Shown: piece by piece, positions 2,871-54,011 of the stretch
How positions within the stretch are numbered: the stretch's first letter is position 1
Layout of the letters: each line of letters starts with the position of its first letter
IMG/VR virus record: IMGVR_UViG_3300033145_000425
Coordinates: 1 to 54,011 of that record
Source of the DNA: a virus
Taxonomy: Duplodnaviria > Caudoviricetes
Strand: one strand, 5' to 3'
Length of the DNA: 54,011 nucleotides
Notes under the pieces: generated by a model
Database searches by the model: none
Seen by the model: the letters and a program-made list of their open reading frames with translations, nothing else
What the model was told of the DNA's origin: nothing
Translations under genes and position numbers: made by a program

Positions 2871-3725
2871 CTATTCTGTCCAGACTTCAGCAAACAACAC
2901 ATCCATATCAGTTTGTACTCCGTTTTTATTTCTTGTTGCAAAACCGAGAGGCATGGCAAGGTCCGGGAGTCGTGCTGTGTGCGTTGCCAGTAGAACATCA
3001 TCAACAATACACTTAACCGAAGTGCCTGCTGTTAATATCAACTCAACTGTATGATAAGAACCCTCTGCCATCTCAGCCGAAATAGCTGTTGTCTCAATAA
3101 TACCATCTGACGTGTTGAAATTAATTACATCATTATTACAATGTACACAAGCTTCAGGGTTGACAGTACCATAGAAATTTGCCGATAGAGGCGATTGGCA
3201 AAAACCAAATCCATATTCTCCTTCTGTGTCATCACACTGTATCCGTGTTCTAAAATGCAATTCATCTTTTAATAAATTGACAAAATCCCACACGAACATA
3301 CCCACTGTATTGATATAAGCATCATTATCACCAACTGACCCGGCGGTAATCTCACACCTTACATCAGTTGCACCAAAATGAACCCGCACAACAGCATCAT
3401 TATCTTCCACAACGTTCCATTTTGCCGTATCCGGGACGGCTAAAGACCCAACTGTGGCAAAATACTCATTCAGAGTTGGTTGCCCAAAACTACCCATAAA
3501 TGCTTTTTCTTTCCCAGTTAGTGTGCCGACTGCGGCGAGTGCATCAATAATATCCTTATGAGTCCCACTTGCCCCCATGAGGTTGGACTCGGTAGTAGAC
3601 AGGGATTGGTCTACATTCGTGTTCACCGTATCCACAACACTCTTCACGCCTGCAACATCTACTGCTACGCTGGCACCCGCCGGTGTTCCAACTCTCGCAA
3701 GAATTCCACCTGCTTTATCCGCCAT
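2871..3725 (-). CDS. Hypothetical protein; C-terminal beta-sandwich, possibly concanavalin/lectin-like
   Basis: YHTVELIL...VKCIVDDVLLATHT..LP pattern resembles LamG/ConA-like phage domains (inference). Confidence 0.45.
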   Translation of the reverse strand: MADKAGGILARVGTPAGASVAVDVAGVKSVVDTVNTNVDQSLSTTESNLMGASGTHKDIIDALAAVGTLTGKEKAFMGSFGQPTLNEYFATVGSLAVPDTAKWNVVEDNDAVVRVHFGATDVRCEITAGSVGDNDAYINTVGMFVWDFVNLLKDELHFRTRIQCDDTEGEYGFGFCQSPLSANFYGTVNPEACVHCNNDVINFNTSDGIIETTAISAEMAEGSYHTVELILTAGTSVKCIVDDVLLATHTARLPDLAMPLGFATRNKNGVQTDMDVLFAEVWTE

Positions 3726-3726
3726 G

Positions 3727-4236
3727 TCATCCTCCCGCCGTACAGGTTAGCTGATACGTAAATTCTATCTTATCACCCGACGCCACGGTAATCGCCGAGA
3801 ACACACTCCTATCCATGAGCGTACCAGCAGCAGCGGCATTGAACAATCCGTGCTCGGTAATCGCAAATGAACCGGCATAAGTGTTCGTAGCTACCGACTT
3901 GTAAATGTTAGCCGTCGCCCCCTCAATCTGCGTCCCCACATCACGTGCTTCCCCACATGGTGTCTGGAGCACTGTATCCGCTGCCGCCTCCACGTTCGTC
4001 CCGGTACCGGAGTCATGGTACTTAAAGTCAGAAAAGCTCGCTACGGAACTCTGAAGCGTATCTACAAGCGCGGCTACAAACGCATCCGTGACTACCCGCT
4101 TACAAACTACGCCGTAGTCTATTACAGTCCCATCTCCACGTATAAGACGGGCGGATAGATTGGATTGCCAGCGAACCCACCCTTTACCCATGACTTTGTT
4201 AATGATATCACCAATATATACTAACACCTGTCCCAT
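3727..4236 (-). CDS. Hypothetical virion structural protein
   Basis: Motifs SGTGT..EAAADT.L and ITEHGLFNAAAAGTLMDRSVF...VASGD.IEFTY.LT, typical of tail-fibre-proximal phage proteins. Confidence 0.55.
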   Translation of the reverse strand: MGQVLVYIGDIINKVMGKGWVRWQSNLSARLIRGDGTVIDYGVVCKRVVTDAFVAALVDTLQSSVASFSDFKYHDSGTGTNVEAAADTVLQTPCGEARDVGTQIEGATANIYKSVATNTYAGSFAITEHGLFNAAAAGTLMDRSVFSAITVASGDKIEFTYQLTCTAGG

Positions 4237-4358
4237 TATTCTTTCCCTCCTCGTATGATGTCCAATTTCTTGAACTGTTTCTTTCCCCTTTTCTTAATCC
4301 GTATGGAAAGTGTTTCGTGTTGTGCCGGTGCTTTTCTGTAAATTGTTGTCTTTGCCAT
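4236..4358 (-). CDS. Small basic protein (40 aa), not in the ORF track
   Basis: MAKTTIYRKAPAQHETLSIRIKKRGKKQFKKLDIIRGGKE*; fills the gap and its TAA overlaps the next ATG. Confidence 0.5.
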   Translation of the reverse strand: MAKTTIYRKAPAQHETLSIRIKKRGKKQFKKLDIIRGGKE

Positions 4359-4361
4359 AGC

Positions 4362-4613
4362 TTAATGTAGTCCATTTAGTCTGGATTCTAATCTCGTTAT
4401 CCGGTCTTGTACTGCTTTAAGATCGGACTTGTGTGTCTTTTGGTCGGATTTATACTCATTACTCCAGAGTTTATCGTCCTTAATCCCTTTAACAGTAGAA
4501 TAGAGGAAAGCGATGTATACTGTGTTGACAACAGACAAAATTAATAAGGCAAGCAGTAAACCGGCTGTACCTTTCTCCATTAGTGCGGCCAAGCTCATAA
4601 ATCCCATATCCAT
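4362..4613 (-). CDS. Small membrane protein, holin-like (one TM helix plus coiled-coil tail)
   Basis: Hydrophobic GLLLALLILSVVNTVYIAFLY followed by DRITRLESRLNG. Confidence 0.5.
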   Translation of the reverse strand: MDMGFMSLAALMEKGTAGLLLALLILSVVNTVYIAFLYSTVKGIKDDKLWSNEYKSDQKTHKSDLKAVQDRITRLESRLNGLH

Positions 4614-4616
4614 CTC

Positions 4617-7600
4617 CTATACGCTAACTGGTGTTGATTTATTGTCATCCTCAAGACTAATATATGTTTTTCCATCGAGTTCTACCTTATCGCCTTGCTC
4701 ATATCCTGCCCCATCAGCCAACTTCCCCTCCGCTGCCCATGTTCCCTGCCAATCAATATCTATCGCATCCACATCCCTGAACCATATCTCCCATGTGCCC
4801 CGGGTATTGCCCAACTCTACATCCCATGTCGCAAGGATACTGGACTCAAAAGTGCCGGTCTTGCGGTTTTCGGAGAATGTTTCCTGTAACTGGACATTGG
4901 ATGCTTTATTAATTAATTCCTTTACCGTCTCTGTTGTATCGCTGGGTGGCCTGATGGCGGGTTTGGATAAACCACCGTCCCATCCAGCTTCCGACTCAGG
5001 GTCACTTGGTACATAACTATCATACAGATCCGCATCATACTGTACCAGTGTCAATGTCCTCATAAGCTCTGAAGTACGGCTGATGTCTGTGATACGGTAC
5101 TTGTTGACTATTGTATCACTGTCATCACCAAATGAATATACATCATATTGCTGCGGAGGTACAGTCCACACAGTGCTATAATTTAGGCTATCCCGTGTTT
5201 CTCCCGTATTAAGGCTCGTGGTTTTGGTTATGCGTGTGCCACTTCTCCAGACTATGAGCTCATCATCGCCTGCCAGCGTAACTTCTCGGTCAAGCGTCAC
5301 CCGCGCCTGTTGCATCCAATCCGTAACCGCTGCCGCTTCCTCTACCTGTACCGCATCAAAATAAGCCGAACCCTCTCCGCCCAGCCATATCGTGAGAGTG
5401 GTTTGTCCGGGTTCCGTAGTCACAGTAAATTCGAGTCTTTCCCACGCATTCAGCCCCGCAGGATGTTTACTCGGATATGCGCTGCCTATCTTCGTCATAA
5501 TACGTAACGATGTGTCTGTGTGTGGGTAGGTGTAACATGACAGGGTGTATTGGGTAGAGGCCTTTAATCCTGTAATTGTCTGGCTAATACCACCGTTTTC
5601 AACGGCCCCAGTGTGGTAATAAGCCTTGTCGCCACTATATTTCCTCGCCGTGGAGATTATACGGGTTGCGGTTCCCCAATTAACCCAACTACTGAAGTCT
5701 GTTTCAAAGCTGGGATTGGATATGGGGTTTTCCTCATACTTCACAATACGCCCGCCACGCCCGGCATTCAACACATCATGCTGCACTTCCACCACATCTC
5801 CCGCCTGCGCCGCCAACGCATCTATATCCACGCCAAAAGATATTGCATTGTTAAGAAGTTCATTCCCCATGAGTATGAAACGCGCAGTAGCCCATGCCTG
5901 GTCAAATGTAGTAGTGCCATAAAGCGTTATAGTTACGGGTATACTGGGCATCTCGCTGCTGTCCCAGTCCTCCGTCCTCGCCGCCAGAGTCGTTTTCTCA
6001 TAGTTACGTTCCCGGTCATAGTAATTCGCCTCTATCATGTTTATCTTCTGATTGGATTCCATGAACTTCTGTACAAACGTACCGGTATGGATATTACCCA
6101 TAGTGAATAGCTGAGTGGCATCCGCTGCTTTGTCCGTAAACGCGTATATCTTAGACCCGACCGGATACACCATGCCCCGTCCCTCCTGACATACCCGCAA
6201 TATCGCATCCCAAGCGGTCATAAACGTATCAAACACTATATTGAGCTCATAGTCCAATGTCTCTATGTTGTCTGCCCATTCCCTGAATGATTCATAGTCA
6301 AGACGGTCTTTGTCCACACCACACCCGTATATTGCCTCTGCATCCTCATTGCCTGCTGTCGGGTACGCCGGGTGGTCAGGATGCCCCTGTGCAAGTATAT
6401 CATACACTGCCCATGCGTGATTGTCAGCAGGCCCCTCTACCCACAATCCGGTAGCCGTGAGCGTTATTTGCGTGGTCATAGCGCCATTTTCATTGATTGT
6501 GATGGTGCTATAGTCACTATCAAGATATAAGCGTTCAAAACCCATTACCTCGAACGCCACTTTACGGCTAATTTTGTACACACCATTATTTGCCCCACCA
6601 CTCACTACCGCACCGCTAATTGTAATAAACTGCCCTACCTGAAAATCATTCCAGTCGCCGTAGTATCCTTTGATGCGGATATAATTACCTGAAGCATAAA
6701 GTGTTATTTTGCTTGTAGTAAGTGTCTTTGCGTGTCGTGTATTATACACCCACACCTGACTCCTCTCCACATCCACCTGTACATCCAAATCTCCGCTGAT
6801 TTGCCCTGATGCCAGCGCTTTAATGCCGAGTAGGGGTTCACCGGGGTAGGTAAATCCGGGAGCCGACCTATCTGCATTTTCCTCTCCATAAACAACAGTT
6901 GCCACATTCGTCAGTTTTATAATAGATGGTGAACTTGCCGCTACACGTATCTCATATGTTTTGCCATATCCAAGTACCTCGTTTGCCTTTTTAGCGTTTA
7001 CAGATATGTGGAAATTCTGCGGTTTTGAGCGTGTTATTGCGCCTGCAGAAGGATCAGTATTCGTAATCTTATAATCTGTACCAGTGGCAAAGCCAAACTC
7101 AAAGTCAATCCAGCTTTCCGTATCACTATCTGTGTATTCTCTGTATTGGGCGAATACTCTACAAGAAGCATTCACCGTCTCTCCGGTTGTAGTCACCCCA
7201 TATAGCCCAAATGGGAATTCAAATATAAGTTGAATATCGTGTGCATTCGTTAATTTGAGACCCGGTTCATACCAATCGTCCGCAACCGGCATATTAGTGC
7301 CATATGGGTATTTTTTATCGTACCAACCCTGCGTGTCAACCCTAAAAGTGAAAATGTCATAGGCGGTGCCTGGAAGAGTAACATTGCCATACGCTTTTTG
7401 ATATTCTTTTTCGGACACCGCTTTGTCAAAAATAAGGTGAACAGTATGGGGGAGCATAGCTGGCGTAAGTACATACTCGTCTGCCTTTATCGTATAGGAT
7501 TCCCCTCGAAGAAGGAGCTGGTGCTCGTCCCAGCTTACCACCATAGCATCCGTATCTATTCGAAAATTAGCCGCTTCTTTAACAATTTCCGGGTAATCCA

Positions 7601-36352: not shown

Positions 36353-36417
36353 TACTTACTCCTTTCCGCTAAAAAATTTACTCCATAATTTAAATAATAG
36401 TAGTGTAAATAATTATA

Positions 36418-37029
36418 TTATCCACTTAATTGTTTAGCCGCCGTTTCCGCCAGCTTCTTTATATTTCTCTCGCCGTGCCCCTCAAGGACTTTATGCTTCC
36501 CTGTTCCGGTTTCGATTAAAACAGGTTTACCTATATGGTCCATATAACCATTTGTGGTATTTTCAATCTCAATAATACCCTTCAAGTATTCAGGATGCTT
36601 GTCCCTGGTTGCGAGGATTTTATAGTTATTAACAAACTCTTTTTGCATCCATTTGTCCATAGGCATGTGGCAGAACTCAGCCCAGCCGGTAGCCATGAGC
36701 CTCACAACGCTGTGTATGACCGGATCGCTGAATTGAACAGAGCAATATGACCCTTTAACCGACATTGCCCTCTTAACCGCTGCCCAGGCTAATACAGCAT
36801 CATTGTCCGTGTCGACTACCAGTTGTTCGCGGACGAGCGCGGCAAAGTTGTCTGATGGGTAAAATTTTGTCTGTTCCCGACATATTTTAGTAACGGCATA
36901 GACGAATTGCTCATCAGTCAAGTCTTTGAGCAGCATGAACCAGACTTTATGGGTTTTGGTATCCAACTTAACAGCGGAAAATGTTGCGGAAAATATCGCC
37001 AAGCCCTCTTTAAATGCTTTGTTTGTCAT
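36418..37029 (-). CDS. Helicase loader/inhibitor-like protein (DUF6475-like)
   Basis: W..LLKDL.DEQF..AV; AW..V..A....GSY.SV.F.DPVIH; follows the initiator. Confidence 0.7.
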   Translation of the reverse strand: MTNKAFKEGLAIFSATFSAVKLDTKTHKVWFMLLKDLTDEQFVYAVTKICREQTKFYPSDNFAALVREQLVVDTDNDAVLAWAAVKRAMSVKGSYCSVQFSDPVIHSVVRLMATGWAEFCHMPMDKWMQKEFVNNYKILATRDKHPEYLKGIIEIENTTNGYMDHIGKPVLIETGTGKHKVLEGHGERNIKKLAETAAKQLSG

Positions 37030-37797
37030 TTATTCCTCCTCCACTTCCATGTCAGGGTCAAGCCCACCTTCTTCTCCGAAATTAGTATTTTTAATCTGTC
37101 TTAATTGCTTATCGAGAGGGCTTTCTTGGTTATTATCCCCCCAAGTGATGTTATTTCTCAACCACGTCTTAAATCTCCTATTGATATCAAATACTTTCTC
37201 CATCTCCCACCGCTCTTTTTTACCACCAGGTTTTTTTTCTTTCCAGTATTCCATGAAATCAAATTTGTTTTTCAGTTCGCTGGGAGAGAATTTTTTTTCT
37301 ATTTCTTTAAAAAGGGATTCAAGTGTATCGTTAGATATACCTATATTTGAAGATGAAGAAGAAGATGAAGAAGAAGATGAAGAAGAAGGGGTTGGATTTT
37401 GGTTGGAGTCTTGCTTAACCTTTTGCTTAACCTTTTGCTTAACCAAATTAGGGTTGCCGCCAAGCTTTCCTGACTCCTTTCTTATATTCCTAAGTCTATT
37501 ATCTTCAATCATTCGCTTACAGTAAAGCACCCCCTCTTCATCTTCTTTTAAAACACCGTATAGAATGAGTTCATTTAGTGCCACCTCAAACGTTCTATGA
37601 TTCATCCTCAACAGTTTTATAACCGGTTTATAACCGTTCTTTGAGCCGTTTATGAGCAGTTTACCATACGTTTCTGATTGATGCATGAGACACATAAGAT
37701 TAATTAAAAGCCCCTGAGATGTCATTGAACACATCTGTAATTTTGTATTGCTTAACCAATCTTCTGGATAAAATTGAAAGCTCGGTTGTTGTCCCAT
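37030..37797 (-). CDS. Phage replication initiator / replisome organiser
   Basis: PSFQFYPEDWL...QG....L.C.M; KRM...G.LGGNP; internal iterons; start at the ATG overlapping the leader TGA. Confidence 0.8.
   Translation of the reverse strand: MGQQPSFQFYPEDWLSNTKLQMCSMTSQGLLINLMCLMHQSETYGKLLINGSKNGYKPVIKLLRMNHRTFEVALNELILYGVLKEDEEGVLYCKRMIEDNRLRNIRKESGKLGGNPNLVKQKVKQKVKQDSNQNPTPSSSSSSSSSSSSSNIGISNDTLESLFKEIEKKFSPSELKNKFDFMEYWKEKKPGGKKERWEMEKVFDINRRFKTWLRNNITWGDNNQESPLDKQLRQIKNTNFGEEGGLDPDMEVEEE
37348..37444. repeat. Iteron-like repeats (TTGCTTAACC x3, 12-bp period) and GAAGATGAAGAA tract: putative origin
   Basis: Copies at 37411, 37423 and 37435, plus a lone copy at 37748; lambda-O-like placement inside the initiator gene. 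Confidence 0.65.
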
Positions 37798-37892
37798 CAC
37801 TTCACCCCACAAAAGAAAAAGGCAGTAAATCCCGACCGAAAGAAATGAAGTATCATTTCTAATACGAAATCTACTGCCCTTAATTTATCCAT
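37797..37892 (-). CDS. Putative 31-aa leader peptide coupled to the initiator
   Basis: GAGGT RBS; MDKLRAVDFVLEMILHFFRSGFTAFFFCGVK*; TGATG overlap with the initiator. Confidence 0.5.
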   Translation of the reverse strand: MDKLRAVDFVLEMILHFFRSGFTAFFFCGVK

Positions 37893-37916
37893 AAAAAATA
37901 CCTCATCTCTTTCGGT
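37818..37916 (-). promoter_or_regulatory. Structured 5' leader with interleaved A-B-A'-B' stems
   Basis: 19-bp stem 37898-37916/37835-37853 and 17-bp stem 37865-37881/37818-37834; mismatches are G-U on the minus strand. Confidence 0.7.
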
Positions 37917-37922
37917 ACTTAC

Positions 37923-37951
37923 AGTATAAACACACGATTTGAAAAAGTCAA
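37923..37951 (-). promoter_or_regulatory. Sigma70 promoter for the replication genes
   Basis: TTGACT-17 nt-TATACT. Confidence 0.8.
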
Positions 37952-37969
37952 GCTTTAAAATCCAGGTCA

Positions 37970-39321
37970 TTATAAATCCAGCTTTCTCTGTTTCATTTCA
38001 AACTCTATCCGCTTATTTGCCATGTCTATATATTCCTGATTAGGCTCAAATCCGATGAATTGCCGGTTAGCTCGCAGGGCAACTTTAGCAACCGTGCCAC
38101 TTCCCATGAATGGGTCAAGGACTATACCATGTTCTGGACACCCCGCAAGTATAGGTGTCTCAACAAGCTCCTCTGGAAAGGTGGCAAAGTGTGCTTCTGG
38201 ATATGGCTGAGTCGTTATGTCCCATACAGATTTCTTTAGCCCGTATTCCTTACCTATTTGTTCCCAAACTCCGGGGGCAATATCACCTACACGTTGAGAT
38301 ATGAATAGTAGTAACTCATCTATATCAATGGACTCGTCTTTCCATACACAGCGTTTGTTGCGACCTTGTAACATGCGTTCCCTTGTTTTATCTTCATCTC
38401 TATTTTCTTGTGTAAATGCAGAATTACCCCCTTGCCTATCCGATGAATAATCTTTAGCTTTCATCAATCGTCTAACATCACCCTCGGGGTCCAAACTTGA
38501 ATCAAACTGTTGCTCAAACCAATACTTCCTCTGCTTAGTAAAGAAGAACACCTTTTCAAAGTCCACCGTGAACCTGTCCTTTGCCGAACTTGGCATACAG
38601 TTCCGTTTAAACCATATCAGCTCATTCCGTAGTATCCATCCTGCATCAGTCATGGCAAGGGCAAACCTTGATGGGATTTGGCAGAGTGATTTGGCGGGTA
38701 ATCCACATCTATCAGGTGCTTGTTTACCCATAAAATCTATTGTCCCTTTATTTCCCAGTTGTGTATTGCTTGCATTATCAGCTCCACCCCCACGATAATT
38801 AGCATTATAACTATCTCCAATATTAACCCAGCATGTCCCTGTCTTTTTCAGTACACGCTTAACCTCGTCAAATATCTGCATCAGGTGTTGGATGTATAGC
38901 TGAAAGGTTGGCTCAAGTCCAAGACTGCCACGCCATGCACCGCAGAGGGTGCAGAAATTTCCGTGCCCTTTATTCTGATTGAGATTAGTTTTCTTCATGG
39001 GCGCACCAATAGTTGTTTTGTGGCAACCCGGGTTATGATGTTTACGCTTAAATGTATGCCAGCCCGATTGCCCTGCAGGCAGCATTGTATCTCCCCACTC
39101 ATGCTCACAACTATTGGCAGTCCAACTCATCATCCCGCGATAGATCTCCATTGAAATATGAGATTCAGCATCCCATACAAGCGGTTCAAGCCCATAATCC
39201 CTGATTAAAGTCCCCAATAAGGAGGAGATGTAATAATACAATCAATAGATTCATCCGGTAATTGCTTTAAACCCGTTAAGGCATCGGTGCAAATAATCTT
39301 ATTTATCCACTCGTTGAGAAT
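37970..39321 (-). pseudogene. N4-C/N6-A DNA methyltransferase (beta class), frame broken by 5 extra nt after SPPYWGL
   Basis: 39321-39205 encodes ILNEW...[14 protein letters not shown]; RDYG...WVNIGDSY...HFATFP...VLDPFMGSGT resumes at 39202 in another frame. Confidence 0.75.
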
Positions 39322-49241: not shown

Positions 49242-49316
49242 CGTTTTCCTTGCCCTGAGCGGGCATAAAATTCTGTGTGCGGTGTATATTCTTCGTAGGT
49301 TTGTCTCGTCTGGTAT

Positions 49317-49347
49317 ATAATATTGGATACACCCTCATTCTTGTCAA
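49317..49347 (-). promoter_or_regulatory. Candidate promoter for middle genes
   Basis: TTGACA with AATATT (17-nt spacer) or TATTAT (19-nt spacer). Confidence 0.45.
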
Positions 49348-49384
49348 GTAAAATTTTCATTCTCCCTTATCCCTTACCACATCG

Positions 49385-49521
49385 CTATTTGAAACCGCAA
49401 TCCCATTCCCACTTAAAGAGGCAATATCTCGAGGTGTGGCAAAATGCAACACTCACACTTGAAAAGCCCTATTTAAAACCAGCCACTTGAAGAGGCTATT
49501 TGAAGACCCCTATTTGAAGAC
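49385..49521. repeat. Cluster of seven YAYTTRAA direct repeats around a 17-bp palindrome
   Basis: CTATTTRAA x4 and CACTTRAA x3 in non-coding DNA. Confidence 0.6.
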
Positions 49522-49790
49522 AGACTATTGTAGCCGGAATTCGGACGGACAAACCGGGAAACGATTGAGTATTACACTACCACAATATAAGCGGTGTCAG
49601 CCATCCCCTGCCCTATTTTACATAGCAGAAGCATAATATGTCCATAAACGTCCATAGCTCCATCATAGAGACATTATTAGCCATTATTGGTGGGTTACTA
49701 TGTCCGGTGTCCCGATATGCTGTGCTGTACCCGTGCTATGCCCCTGGCAATGTGGATTAATGTATTGTGTTTGACATTGTGCAATGGGCA

Positions 49791-49820
49791 ATAAAAAGCC
49801 CGGACAAACATCACCCGGGC
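49791..49820 (-). terminator. Intrinsic terminator of the early operon
   Basis: GCCCGGG...TCCGGGC stem followed by TTTTTAT. Confidence 0.7.
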
Positions 49821-49927
49821 AGTTTACCCTTATTTATATGTGTTATGTTCAATCTCCTTTCGGTAACATCGGCAAGCAAAGGCCGATAAATAGAATTATG
49901 ATCACAATAATAATATGTGTCAACTGG

Positions 49928-53923: not shown

Positions 53924-54011
53924 TGTGCCCTCCTTATGTACCAAAGTCTGTTATTATACCACCTGTTACGGTAACCGTGTTGCTATTGTTATCTTCAAAA
54001 CTTCCCGTCTG
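53898..54011. repeat. Terminal direct repeat, copy 2
   Basis: Identical to 1-114. Confidence 0.97.

Follow-up and report, generated by a model that had tools for sequence, protein, structure and literature searches.

We analyzed the complete virus record IMGVR_UViG_3300033145_000425 (Duplodnaviria; Caudoviricetes), a stretch of 54,011 bp with direct terminal repeats that is rated 100% complete and is referred to here as the window. Nearly all long open reading frames (ORFs) of this genome are carried by the minus strand, as is the element studied here, a short leader (37797-37951) lying between an N6/N4 DNA methyltransferase gene (37970-39241, minus strand; PF01555, E 3.7e-42) directly upstream and the gene for a 255 amino acid protein (37030-37797, minus strand), a putative replication initiation or replisome-organizer protein according to PHROG profiles and structural comparison. 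Our analysis suggests that this leader may be a cis-acting 5' RNA switch, namely a transcription attenuator linked to a leader ORF, which would meter the replication-initiation gene; we give this reading about an even chance. All leader features described below lie on the minus strand.

The unit begins with a sigma70-like promoter (37923-37951), in which a -35 element TTGACT (37951-37946), a 17-nt spacer and a -10 element TATACT (37928-37923) match 10 of 12 consensus positions. Four arms follow in the order A (37898-37916), B (37865-37881), A' (37835-37853) and B' (37818-37834), separated by 16 nt (A to B), 11 nt (B to A') and 0 nt (A' to B'). B' is the most conserved block of the leader (GGATTT.CTGC). 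A and A' are the 5' and 3' strands of a 19-bp helix with 17 Watson-Crick and 2 G.U pairs, and the 3' half of A holds the leader Shine-Dalgarno sequence GAGGT (37904-37900). Arm B, located inside the A:A' loop, is the 5' strand of a second helix, B:B', of 17 bp (13 Watson-Crick and 4 wobble pairs), whose G+C-rich base is followed at once by the U-tract UUUUUCUUUU (37811-37820). An earlier note on this DNA, made from the sequence alone, had described the promoter, the order A, B, A', B' and the U-run, and direct reading of the minus strand confirmed this description together with its arm coordinates and the position of GAGGT within A. The note was also correct in stating that every deviation from canonical pairing is a G-U pair, as there are zero mismatches other than six G.U/U.G wobbles across both helices of the window.

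The 133-nt leader has a minimum free energy (MFE) of -39.7 kcal/mol, as compared with -26.2 +/- 3.2 kcal/mol in dinucleotide shuffles (z -4.24; 0 of 200 as good). Both inverted repeats were reported by a repeat search, and the sole other match of the A 19-mer in the 54 kb is A' (2 mismatches, opposite strand; 0.04 expected). Two further roles considered for B' were rejected: as a repeated DNA site it has 17 matches at up to 3 mismatches versus 14.1 +/- 3.8 expected, and as an anti-Shine-Dalgarno sequence of the initiator it is not significant in the window or in the homologous locus L009 introduced below. The Rfam comparison proposed in the earlier note was negative, with 0 matches to Rfam 15 at gathering thresholds over the whole window; the best sub-threshold match within 37700-38050 reached 23 bits versus a gathering score of 98 and belongs to a miRNA model.

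Downstream of arm A opens a leader ORF of 31 codons (37797-37892; ATG 37892-37890, TGA 37799-37797), the TGA of which shares its A with the ATG of the 255 amino acid gene (37797-37795), giving TGATG. This bears out the 31-codon ORF and the stop/start overlap claimed earlier, with the leader ATG now placed at 37892-37890. The 255 amino acid gene has its own Shine-Dalgarno sequence, GGGGTG, at 37808-37803. In the window only, the leader frame extends upstream to 57 amino acids (37797-37970), its ATG at 37970 overlapping the methylase stop (TAATG), and hence methylase, 57 amino acid frame and 255 amino acid gene are chained by TAATG and TGATG over 37797-39241. Ribosomes reading through from upstream could cross the whole leader via these chained frames.

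To place the leader in a comparative context, we searched for relatives of the 255 amino acid protein, which gave 4 loci in viral contigs and 10 in metagenome contigs, and compared the 260 nt upstream of the gene in all 14; a protein search of genome contigs gave no relative. Two of the 14 loci (L008 and L009), whose proteins are 63-67% identical over the whole length, share the promoter-leader unit, composed of CTTGAC, a spacer of 16-17 nt, TAT..T, TAAG, an arm A with GAGGT or GGAGT, AUG, B, A', B' and a U-tract. No similar leader was found in the other 12, most of which have an upstream ORF running into the start codon. In one relative with 66% N-terminal identity (L003), the place of the leader is taken by a small hydrophobic ORF (2819-2998) that ends 2 nt before the initiator start and has no similarity to the leader under study.

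A covariance model with 19 A:A' pairs was built from the three leaders; its home-made E-values are rough. It scored the three members at 118, 103 and 95 bits, and the next best score among 76 sources (656,890 bases) was 26.9 bits, which was not exceeded by any of the 73 other sources, 61 of them loci seeded by the B' 17-mer in viral contigs. The model recognized a single copy in the window. Run against 79 loci of more distant protein relatives, it gave nothing better than E 3.5, and about 90 other loci that encode a relative of the 255 amino acid protein lack the leader. Pattern searches were likewise negative: an 18-mer A/A' pattern occurred at 2 loci in viral contigs, both unrelated on inspection, and a pattern running from the ribosome-binding site (RBS) and AUG to B' occurred at 0 loci in viral contigs and at 3 in genome contigs, all by chance. 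A phage collection gave no DNA match and two weak protein matches only. Finally, 11 further cases of a long gap upstream of the gene within the protein family, when folded, contained unrelated hairpins or terminators of the upstream gene instead of the leader. Judged from these comparisons, three members of the family are known, and the leader is confined to one sub-clade of the 255 amino acid protein family.

The consensus match of the promoter is by itself at chance level (8 promoter-like sites in a 3-kb stretch versus 7.4 +/- 2.8 expected). CTTGAC and TAT..T are nonetheless invariant in L009 and L008, at a spacing of 16-17 nt and within diverged flanks, and we regard the promoter as credible because its -35 element, -10 element and spacing are kept in these two homologous loci. 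Promoter and terminator were called by consensus and energy only. Between the -10 element and arm A, the sequence TAAG(T/C)A (37916-37921) occupies invariant alignment columns in the three leaders; transcription probably starts within it, the A at 37916 lying 7 nt past the -10 element.

Further downstream, GAGGT or GGAGT followed after 7-8 nt by AUG is invariant in position in all three leaders, as is the presence of five or six U between RBS and AUG, and arm B starts at +12/+13 in each case. The leader ORF has 31 codons in the window, 30 in L009 and 20 in L008. It spans B and A' in all three leaders, and B' with the U-tract in two of them. TGATG ends the ORF in the window as well as in L009, although indels of +1 and -4 nt between the two leaders shift and then restore the frame. 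The reading frame over the B' block is 0 in the window but +1 in L009, and in L008 the block lies past the stop and is not translated; the U-tract is likewise coding in the window and L009 and non-coding in L008. Because of these differences over the B' block, the constraint bears on the RNA rather than on the peptide. The peptides are hydrophobic in all three leaders and their sequence is not conserved. Before the terminator they share neither a run of cognate codons nor any other conserved stalling codons; Phe codons occur in the window and L009 within the U-tract itself, in different frames, and are absent from L008. Two other candidates were discarded, namely a -1 frameshift at the U-run (which has no in-frame canonical slippery heptamer) and the 57 amino acid ORF as a conserved unit (stops interrupt the frame 7 codons before the leader AUG in L009 and 16 codons before it in L008).

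When covariation was tested, as proposed in the earlier note, the two helices proved to be kept among the three leaders through compensatory changes. In a MAFFT alignment, 83% of the pair cells are standard, versus 36-57% when the 3' partners are slid by 1-3 columns. Changes on both sides affect 9 of 36 pairs, versus 3.6 +/- 1.4 in column shuffles (0 of 500 reach 9), a comparison that is inflated by kinship among the leaders; significance of the R-scape type is out of reach with three leaders. Folded separately, the three sequences have A:A' helices of 19, 17 (one bulge) and 14 bp (4x4 internal loop) and B:B' helices of 17, 16 and 14 bp, and in the outer half of A:A' pairing is kept although nearly every position varies among the leaders. 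Over both helices and all three sequences there are 86 Watson-Crick pairs, 11 G.U pairs, 1 A.C pair and 6 others; the binomial value of the wobble asymmetry is 0.003, with the qualification that the pairs are not independent, some wobbles being shared by the window and L009 through descent. The sense strand is identified as the folded strand because the wobbles would be A.C mismatches on the opposite strand. Covariation and wobble asymmetry thus support the earlier claim of selection at the RNA level, and on these alignments the leader structure is under selection as sense RNA.

These data also bear on the possibility that the region holds no regulatory RNA, and instead encodes a small hydrophobic protein (31 or 57 amino acids; type I toxin-like or membrane) or acts as a DNA operator, an origin or a single-strand initiation site. 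The hydrophobicity of the three peptides and the chaining of the 57 amino acid frame between two genes of the window would agree with a protein, and strand-specific G.T pairs would suit a hairpin of single-stranded DNA. However, a protein sits poorly with a frame that differs over B' between the window and L009, with the 20 codons of L008, with the lack of the 57 amino acid extension in the relatives, and with the lack of any Pfam or PHROG family match for the leader peptide. Unlike a protein-binding site, the arms change while their pairing is kept; the conserved promoter, RBS, AUG and U-tract fit a transcript only, and better iteron-like origin candidates are located elsewhere, at 49384-49533. 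A type I toxin-antitoxin system (hok/sok- or fst-like) was also considered, and neither a conserved toxin ORF nor an antisense promoter was found, although no PADLOC search was made. We consider a protein or DNA-site function to be highly improbable.

In all three leaders B' is followed by a U-tract: UUUUUCUUUU in the window, UUUUUUU (7 U) in L009 and UUUUUUAUUUU (6U-A-4U) in L008. Taken alone, the B...B' hairpin has an energy of -30.5 kcal/mol in the window, -33.0 in L009 and -24.0 in L008, and its G+C-rich base abuts the U-tract, suggesting that B:B' and the U-tract form an intrinsic terminator; a simple terminator scan called a minimal 6-bp version of it in L009. The earlier note had described the element as a pseudoknot or attenuator leader, and the U-tract right after B' points to the attenuator half of that description rather than to the pseudoknot half.

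Stepwise folding gave the same order of events in the three leaders. A:A' is the MFE structure once a transcript has reached 72-76 nt, and remains so until a length of 92 nt, or of 108 nt in L008. Once B' is present, B:B' wins, topped in the MFE structures of the terminator conformer by an inner hairpin, C:A' (37841-37860, with 37860-37853 paired to 37848-37841), which has an equivalent of 7 bp in L009 and is not clear in L008. The energies of the B:B' state with C:A' and of the competing state are -37.3 versus -28.0 kcal/mol in the window and -38.5 versus -27.5 kcal/mol in L009; in L008 the two states are close (-29.4 versus -33.6 kcal/mol). The leader Shine-Dalgarno sequence is buried by A:A', and arm A is free in the B:B' state. 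We infer from A-form geometry, without a pseudoknot energy model, that the full 19-bp and 17-bp helices cannot coexist, there being no linker between A' and B', and A:A' and B:B' are read as alternatives because interleaved full helices cannot both form.

A different use of the same arms would be a translational control resembling that of IncI and IncB plasmids, with which the leader had been compared earlier. As described in PMC8053102, the control of IncI1 and IncB replicons has three components: a leader peptide is coupled to the initiator, an antisense RNA is made, and translation of the initiator requires a short pseudoknot. Transferred to the phage, a leader peptide and a loop-to-tail pseudoknot would activate the initiator and an antisense RNA would inhibit it, with B pairing to the part of B' located 5' of the initiator RBS. 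The leader ORF does end on the initiator AUG in two of the three leaders, and B lies in the A:A' loop with its complement 10-25 nt upstream of the initiator RBS, a topology like that described for IncI1/IncB in PMC8053102. Moreover, a GCAG/CUGC core of B:B' (8-9 bp, -8.6 to -13.6 kcal/mol) could pair while A:A' stands, and a partial pseudoknot of this kind may form, its steric feasibility being a matter of inference. Against such a control, the search for an antisense RNA proposed in the earlier note was negative: in none of the three leaders did the antisense strand show a sigma70-like site with at least 9 of 12 consensus matches, in a scan that weak or unusual promoters would escape. Further, no inhibitory structure covers the initiator RBS in the window or L009 (z of the tail fold +0.9 and +0.7, versus -2.1 in L008), the conserved U-tract would have no role, L008 is uncoupled, and the full helices are incompatible without a linker. 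There is also no match to an Rfam antisense or rep-leader family, and the protein is not RepZ/RepA-like. Of the earlier comparison, the coupled leader peptide stands, in two of three leaders only, and the antisense promoter, the RepZ family and the full pseudoknot do not; we consider an IncI/IncB-like control quite unlikely.

We also analyzed the 255 amino acid protein, which has 424 tblastn-confirmed relatives in IMG/VR. Nothing in Pfam was significant, and no RepZ/RepA (IncFII-like) match was found at E up to 1. PHROG profiles for replisome organizers or primosomal proteins matched at E of about 1e-4 for the window (replisome organizer 8e-5) and 1e-8 for L009, the orthologue in L009 also matched a DnaD-like helicase loader (4e-6), and the next gene in L008 encodes a DnaC-like helicase loader (5e-39). 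An AlphaFold (AF2) model based on a 44-sequence alignment has an N-terminal domain (residues 10-110) with a predicted local distance difference test (pLDDT) score above 90. The best Foldseek rows for this model are RepA_N-type plasmid initiators, with weak E-values of 0.017-0.085. VIA-align placed Geobacillus DnaB primosome protein (Z 7.4), the RepA_N "MDR initiator" (PDB 4pta, pSK41-type; Z 6.7) and the N-terminal domain of DnaD (Z 5.8) among generic winged-helix proteins, all below Z 8, which the tool terms middling. Profiles and model together suggest that the protein is likely a replication initiation or replisome-organizer protein. The "initiator" label of the earlier note is plausible in view of the PHROG matches, the DnaC-like neighbour in L008 and the DnaB/RepA_N/DnaD-like winged-helix fold.

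It should be noted that the 255 amino acid gene contains two perfect 12-bp tandem arrays, at 37411-37444 (2.8 copies, which encode KVKQ repeats) and 37349-37388 (3.3 copies, which encode a poly-Ser linker), which fall in a low-confidence linker between two predicted domains. In phage lambda, iterons lie inside the initiator gene O. The arrays at 37349-37444 could be a flexible linker only, or iterons inside the initiator gene.

Translational coupling is widespread in this gene family. Among 75 non-redundant loci of relatives of the downstream gene, the stop of an upstream ORF (at least 20 codons) overlaps the start codon in 56; a gap of 0-12 nt is found in 6, and 13 are without an upstream ORF. 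The overlaps in the 56 loci are mostly ATGA, whatever the upstream gene. Because of this frequency, coupled translation appears to be a habit of the replisome-organizer gene, and the mini-ORF plausibly maintains it behind a promoter that was newly acquired.

The unit accompanies the 255 amino acid gene while its neighbours vary. Upstream lies the methylase in the window, another methylase with an 80 amino acid ORF in L009, and RuvC with an 80 amino acid ORF in L008; the methyltransferase of the window is context only, and the relatives have different upstream genes. Downstream lies a DUF6475 gene in the window (36418-37029; 203 amino acids), a short ORF and a methylase in L009 and the DnaC-like loader in L008 (3777-4649). 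The short ORF of L009 encodes 85 amino acids that match only the N-terminal part of the DUF6475 protein, and the gene after it encodes a 551 amino acid DNA methyltransferase (together 3698-5603). The DUF6475 protein may be a loader-like partner.

This distribution is relevant to another possibility, in which the unit would be a discrete small RNA (sRNA) gene of about 105 nt, or a promoter-proximal terminator overridden by a processive antiterminator in the style of lambda Q and pR'-tR', with the mini-ORF incidental. A strong consensus promoter and a terminator-like hairpin with U-tract within about 105 nt are what such a cassette would contain. The unit lies about 1.5 kb ahead of the packaging genes in the window, and a second unit of promoter, transcript of about 100 nt and terminator at 49923-49790 raises the possibility that short transcripts are a habit of this phage. 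However, the unit remains with the organizer gene where a methylase (L009) or a DnaC-like loader (L008) follows, and not with late genes. The RBS, the AUG and the compensating indels that leave the ORF open as far as TGATG speak for a role of translation, and A:A' covariation would serve no purpose in a cassette made of promoter and terminator alone. A search for a Q-like protein, which was not exhaustive, identified none. We consider this possibility very unlikely.

The second unit (49790-49923, minus strand) is itself a candidate phage sRNA. Its promoter, TTGACA-17-CATAAT, matches the consensus at 11 of 12 positions. The non-coding transcript measures about 100 nt, has a hairpin at its 5' end and a single-stranded, A/U-rich central part, and is closed by a strong terminator with a 10-bp G+C stem and UUUUUAUU. 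On the sense transcriptome, its best predicted targets lie near 14.4-14.5 kb (z -4.6) and 14.95-15.05 kb (z -4.0) and not in the leader. A 13-nt arm-A-like stretch within it was rejected as a trans regulator and treated as chance, since the leader ranks 283rd of 5396 target windows.

The promoter, the two helices, the wobble asymmetry, the U-tract, the RBS with its AUG and the folding order are results of the computation. Built on them is the attenuator reading, in which B:B' would terminate, A:A' would antiterminate, and the ribosome would decide between them, with coupling to the initiator. In this scheme, a constitutive-looking sigma70 promoter would produce a transcript in which the RBS of the mini-ORF lies within the first 19 nt (A). 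As the RNA grows, A would pair with A', hiding the leader RBS, trapping B in the loop and blocking full B:B'. If A is instead kept single-stranded, B:B' topped by C:A' would form a terminator of -24 to -33 kcal/mol, 10-40 nt before the initiator start. Three situations could then be distinguished. A ribosome moving in step with RNA polymerase would cover B, A' and B', preventing termination, and in the window and L009 would reach the initiator AUG by way of UGAUG (termination-reinitiation). A lagging ribosome would hold A open and leave B, at the edge of its footprint (+12/+13), free to form the terminator. Without a ribosome, A:A' would form and the polymerase would read through, with the leader RBS locked and translation poor. 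The net outcome would be a low, capped initiator dose. The ribosome is favoured as arbiter because the RBS is the only part of A conserved beyond pairing. The RNA switch on initiator dose put forward in the earlier note is therefore retained in part: the selection on structure, the RBS with AUG and the coupling in two of three leaders speak for it, IncI/IncB membership is not supported, and the U-tract points away from the pseudoknot half.

Several observations weigh against the attenuator reading. The comparison comprises three leader sequences only, two of them from one metagenome project, and a search for sequencing runs over 36400-39300 gave none, of RNA or otherwise. The interior of the terminator stem is 30 nt, versus 3-8 nt for textbook loops, and the simple terminator scan did not call B:B' in the window. 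Both conformers leave the downstream RBS unpaired in the window and L009, so that control of translation would be indirect, and coupling is not universal, as the L008 leader ORF ends at the A'/B' junction and the downstream start follows 40 nt later behind its own GGTGG. The partial pseudoknot of A:A' with the core of B:B' would blur the dichotomy between terminator and antiterminator, and the initiator assignment of the downstream protein comes from weak profile matches and middling structural Z scores. The weak point of the mechanism itself is that "no ribosome" and "tightly coupled ribosome" both give read-through, and termination would need specific timing or another factor.

Because two of the three routes read through, a factor acting on A or A' is a serious rival. 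In such factor-driven attenuation, of the pT181/pIP501 type, A:A' would be the default antiterminator, and an RNA in trans or a protein binding A or A' would free the B:B' terminator; a countertranscript, a phage sRNA, a ProQ/FinO-like RNA-binding protein or the initiator itself are candidates. This proposal removes the timing problem of the ribosome model, and the default co-transcriptional fold is A:A' in all three leaders, with termination as the induced state, as in the antisense RNA-mediated attenuation by RNAIII of repR in pIP501 described in PMC4981023. It is at odds with the lack of antisense promoters in the three leaders, and no unusual complementarity to A, A', B or B' was found on the transcribed strand elsewhere in the 54-kb genome. 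The candidate sRNA at 49889-49790 gives the leader the low rank stated above, and the part of A whose conservation is not explained by pairing amounts to the RBS and AUG. We consider control by such a factor unlikely.

A variant, to which we assign only a very slight chance, is that the attenuated leader RNA of about 105 nt is itself a copy-number signal, providing a countertranscript-like negative feedback on the initiator without an antisense gene. The free A of terminated RNA would pair in trans with A' on nascent leaders of sister genomes, B would then lie outside the closed loop and be available for the terminator, and the short sense RNA would raise termination with template number.

With regard to known systems, pyrBI-type attenuators of Escherichia coli have a leader ORF that runs through the terminator, and trp and pheL are looser kin. 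The phage leader resembles all of these in its promoter-proximal terminator, its alternative helix, and its RBS with a short ORF whose ribosome can block a hairpin, and it resembles pyrBI in that, in the window and L009, the ORF reads across the terminator as far as the structural gene. It differs from them in its interleaved helices (1:3 and 2:4, as opposed to overlapping neighbours, 2:3 against 3:4), a topology that to our knowledge has not been described for attenuators. Moreover, the leader RBS lies inside the antiterminator arm, there is no regulatory codon run, the context is a phage replication gene and not a biosynthetic operon, and no sequence or Rfam relationship exists.

In phage lambda, read-through is controlled at pR'-tR' with Q and at tR1, before cII-O-P, with N. 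The likeness to lambda consists of a terminator soon after a strong promoter or before replication genes, with regulated read-through. In contrast to lambda, no nut, qut or Q-like features were identified, the leader has an internal antiterminator helix and a leader ORF, and it is linked to the organizer and not to late genes.

Antisense-mediated attenuation in the rep leader is also found in plasmids pT181 and pSK41. In common with pIP501, pT181 and pSK41, the phage leader can fold as a terminator or a competing structure upstream of the initiator, whose dose is rate-limiting, and sequence and folding indicate a terminator with a mutually exclusive pre-emptor in all three leaders. The RepA_N initiator of the pSK41 type is in addition among the best structural matches of the N-terminal domain of the 255 amino acid protein, as noted above. 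Differences from pIP501 and pT181 are the lack of a detectable countertranscript gene, the translated-looking mini-ORF and the lytic-looking phage.

Inc plasmids (IncI1 ColIb-P9 repY/repZ, IncB repB/repA, IncFII R1 tap/repA and IncI2 repR/repA), as described in PMC8053102, share with the phage leader the overlap of leader stop and initiator start, which the phage leader has in two of three cases, and a structured leader with the leader RBS in a stem. Their control relies on a constitutive antisense RNA and, in IncI1/IncB, a short activating pseudoknot. The phage leader instead has alternative helices of 17-19 bp, a U-tract terminator, an uncoupled member (L008), another initiator fold and no antisense promoter found. 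By analogy, pyrBI-type leader-peptide attenuators and Gram-positive plasmid rep-leader attenuators appear to be its closest functional relatives, and it differs from them in the interleaved 1:3/2:4 arms, the RBS in the antiterminator arm and the context of a phage replisome organizer. A literature search on leader-peptide or attenuation control in phage replication gave no replisome-organizer leader among the matches listed.

In the wider genome, profile matches place RecE-like and RecT-like recombination genes and a phrog_2045 gene in the 5' part of the region on the minus strand, followed by a RuvC-like resolvase and an HNH endonuclease before the methyltransferase. Pfam and PHROG matches place, after the 255 amino acid gene and also on the minus strand, the DUF6475 gene, two small ORFs and the small and large terminase genes. 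Tyrosine or serine recombinase profiles had no match anywhere in the 54-kb genome, which agrees with the earlier statement that no integrase was found, and no tRNA genes were found in the window. With direct terminal repeats and no integrase or resolvase match in these recombinase searches, the phage is lytic-looking. The terminator scan also found an identical small hairpin with the same following sequence at 70-82 and 53967-53979, which fits the direct terminal repeats. At 49384-49533 there are about six direct repeats of a CTATTTGAAGA-like unit, with spacings of 13-14, 28, 41 and 111 nt. The array sits in a 686-nt non-coding stretch (49242-49927) with further consensus promoters at 49644 and 49347, and is a candidate iteron-type origin or operator array.

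Control of initiator dose by leader RNA, textbook for plasmids, has been little charted in phages. The unit described here is compact (about 150 bp), is made up of a promoter, an RBS-bearing antiterminator arm, a mini-ORF and a terminator, and travels with an organizer gene in three phage genomes; its 31-codon (or 57-codon) frame should not be annotated as a protein gene without evidence. If the attenuator reading is true, the unit would be a clean kinetic two-state RNA, in which the first helix and the stabler later helix share no nucleotides and exclude each other by topology, and it would offer a small portable part for testing ribosome loading versus polymerase speed in a termination decision. 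It would also represent a candidate class of cis-regulatory RNA for phage replication modules.

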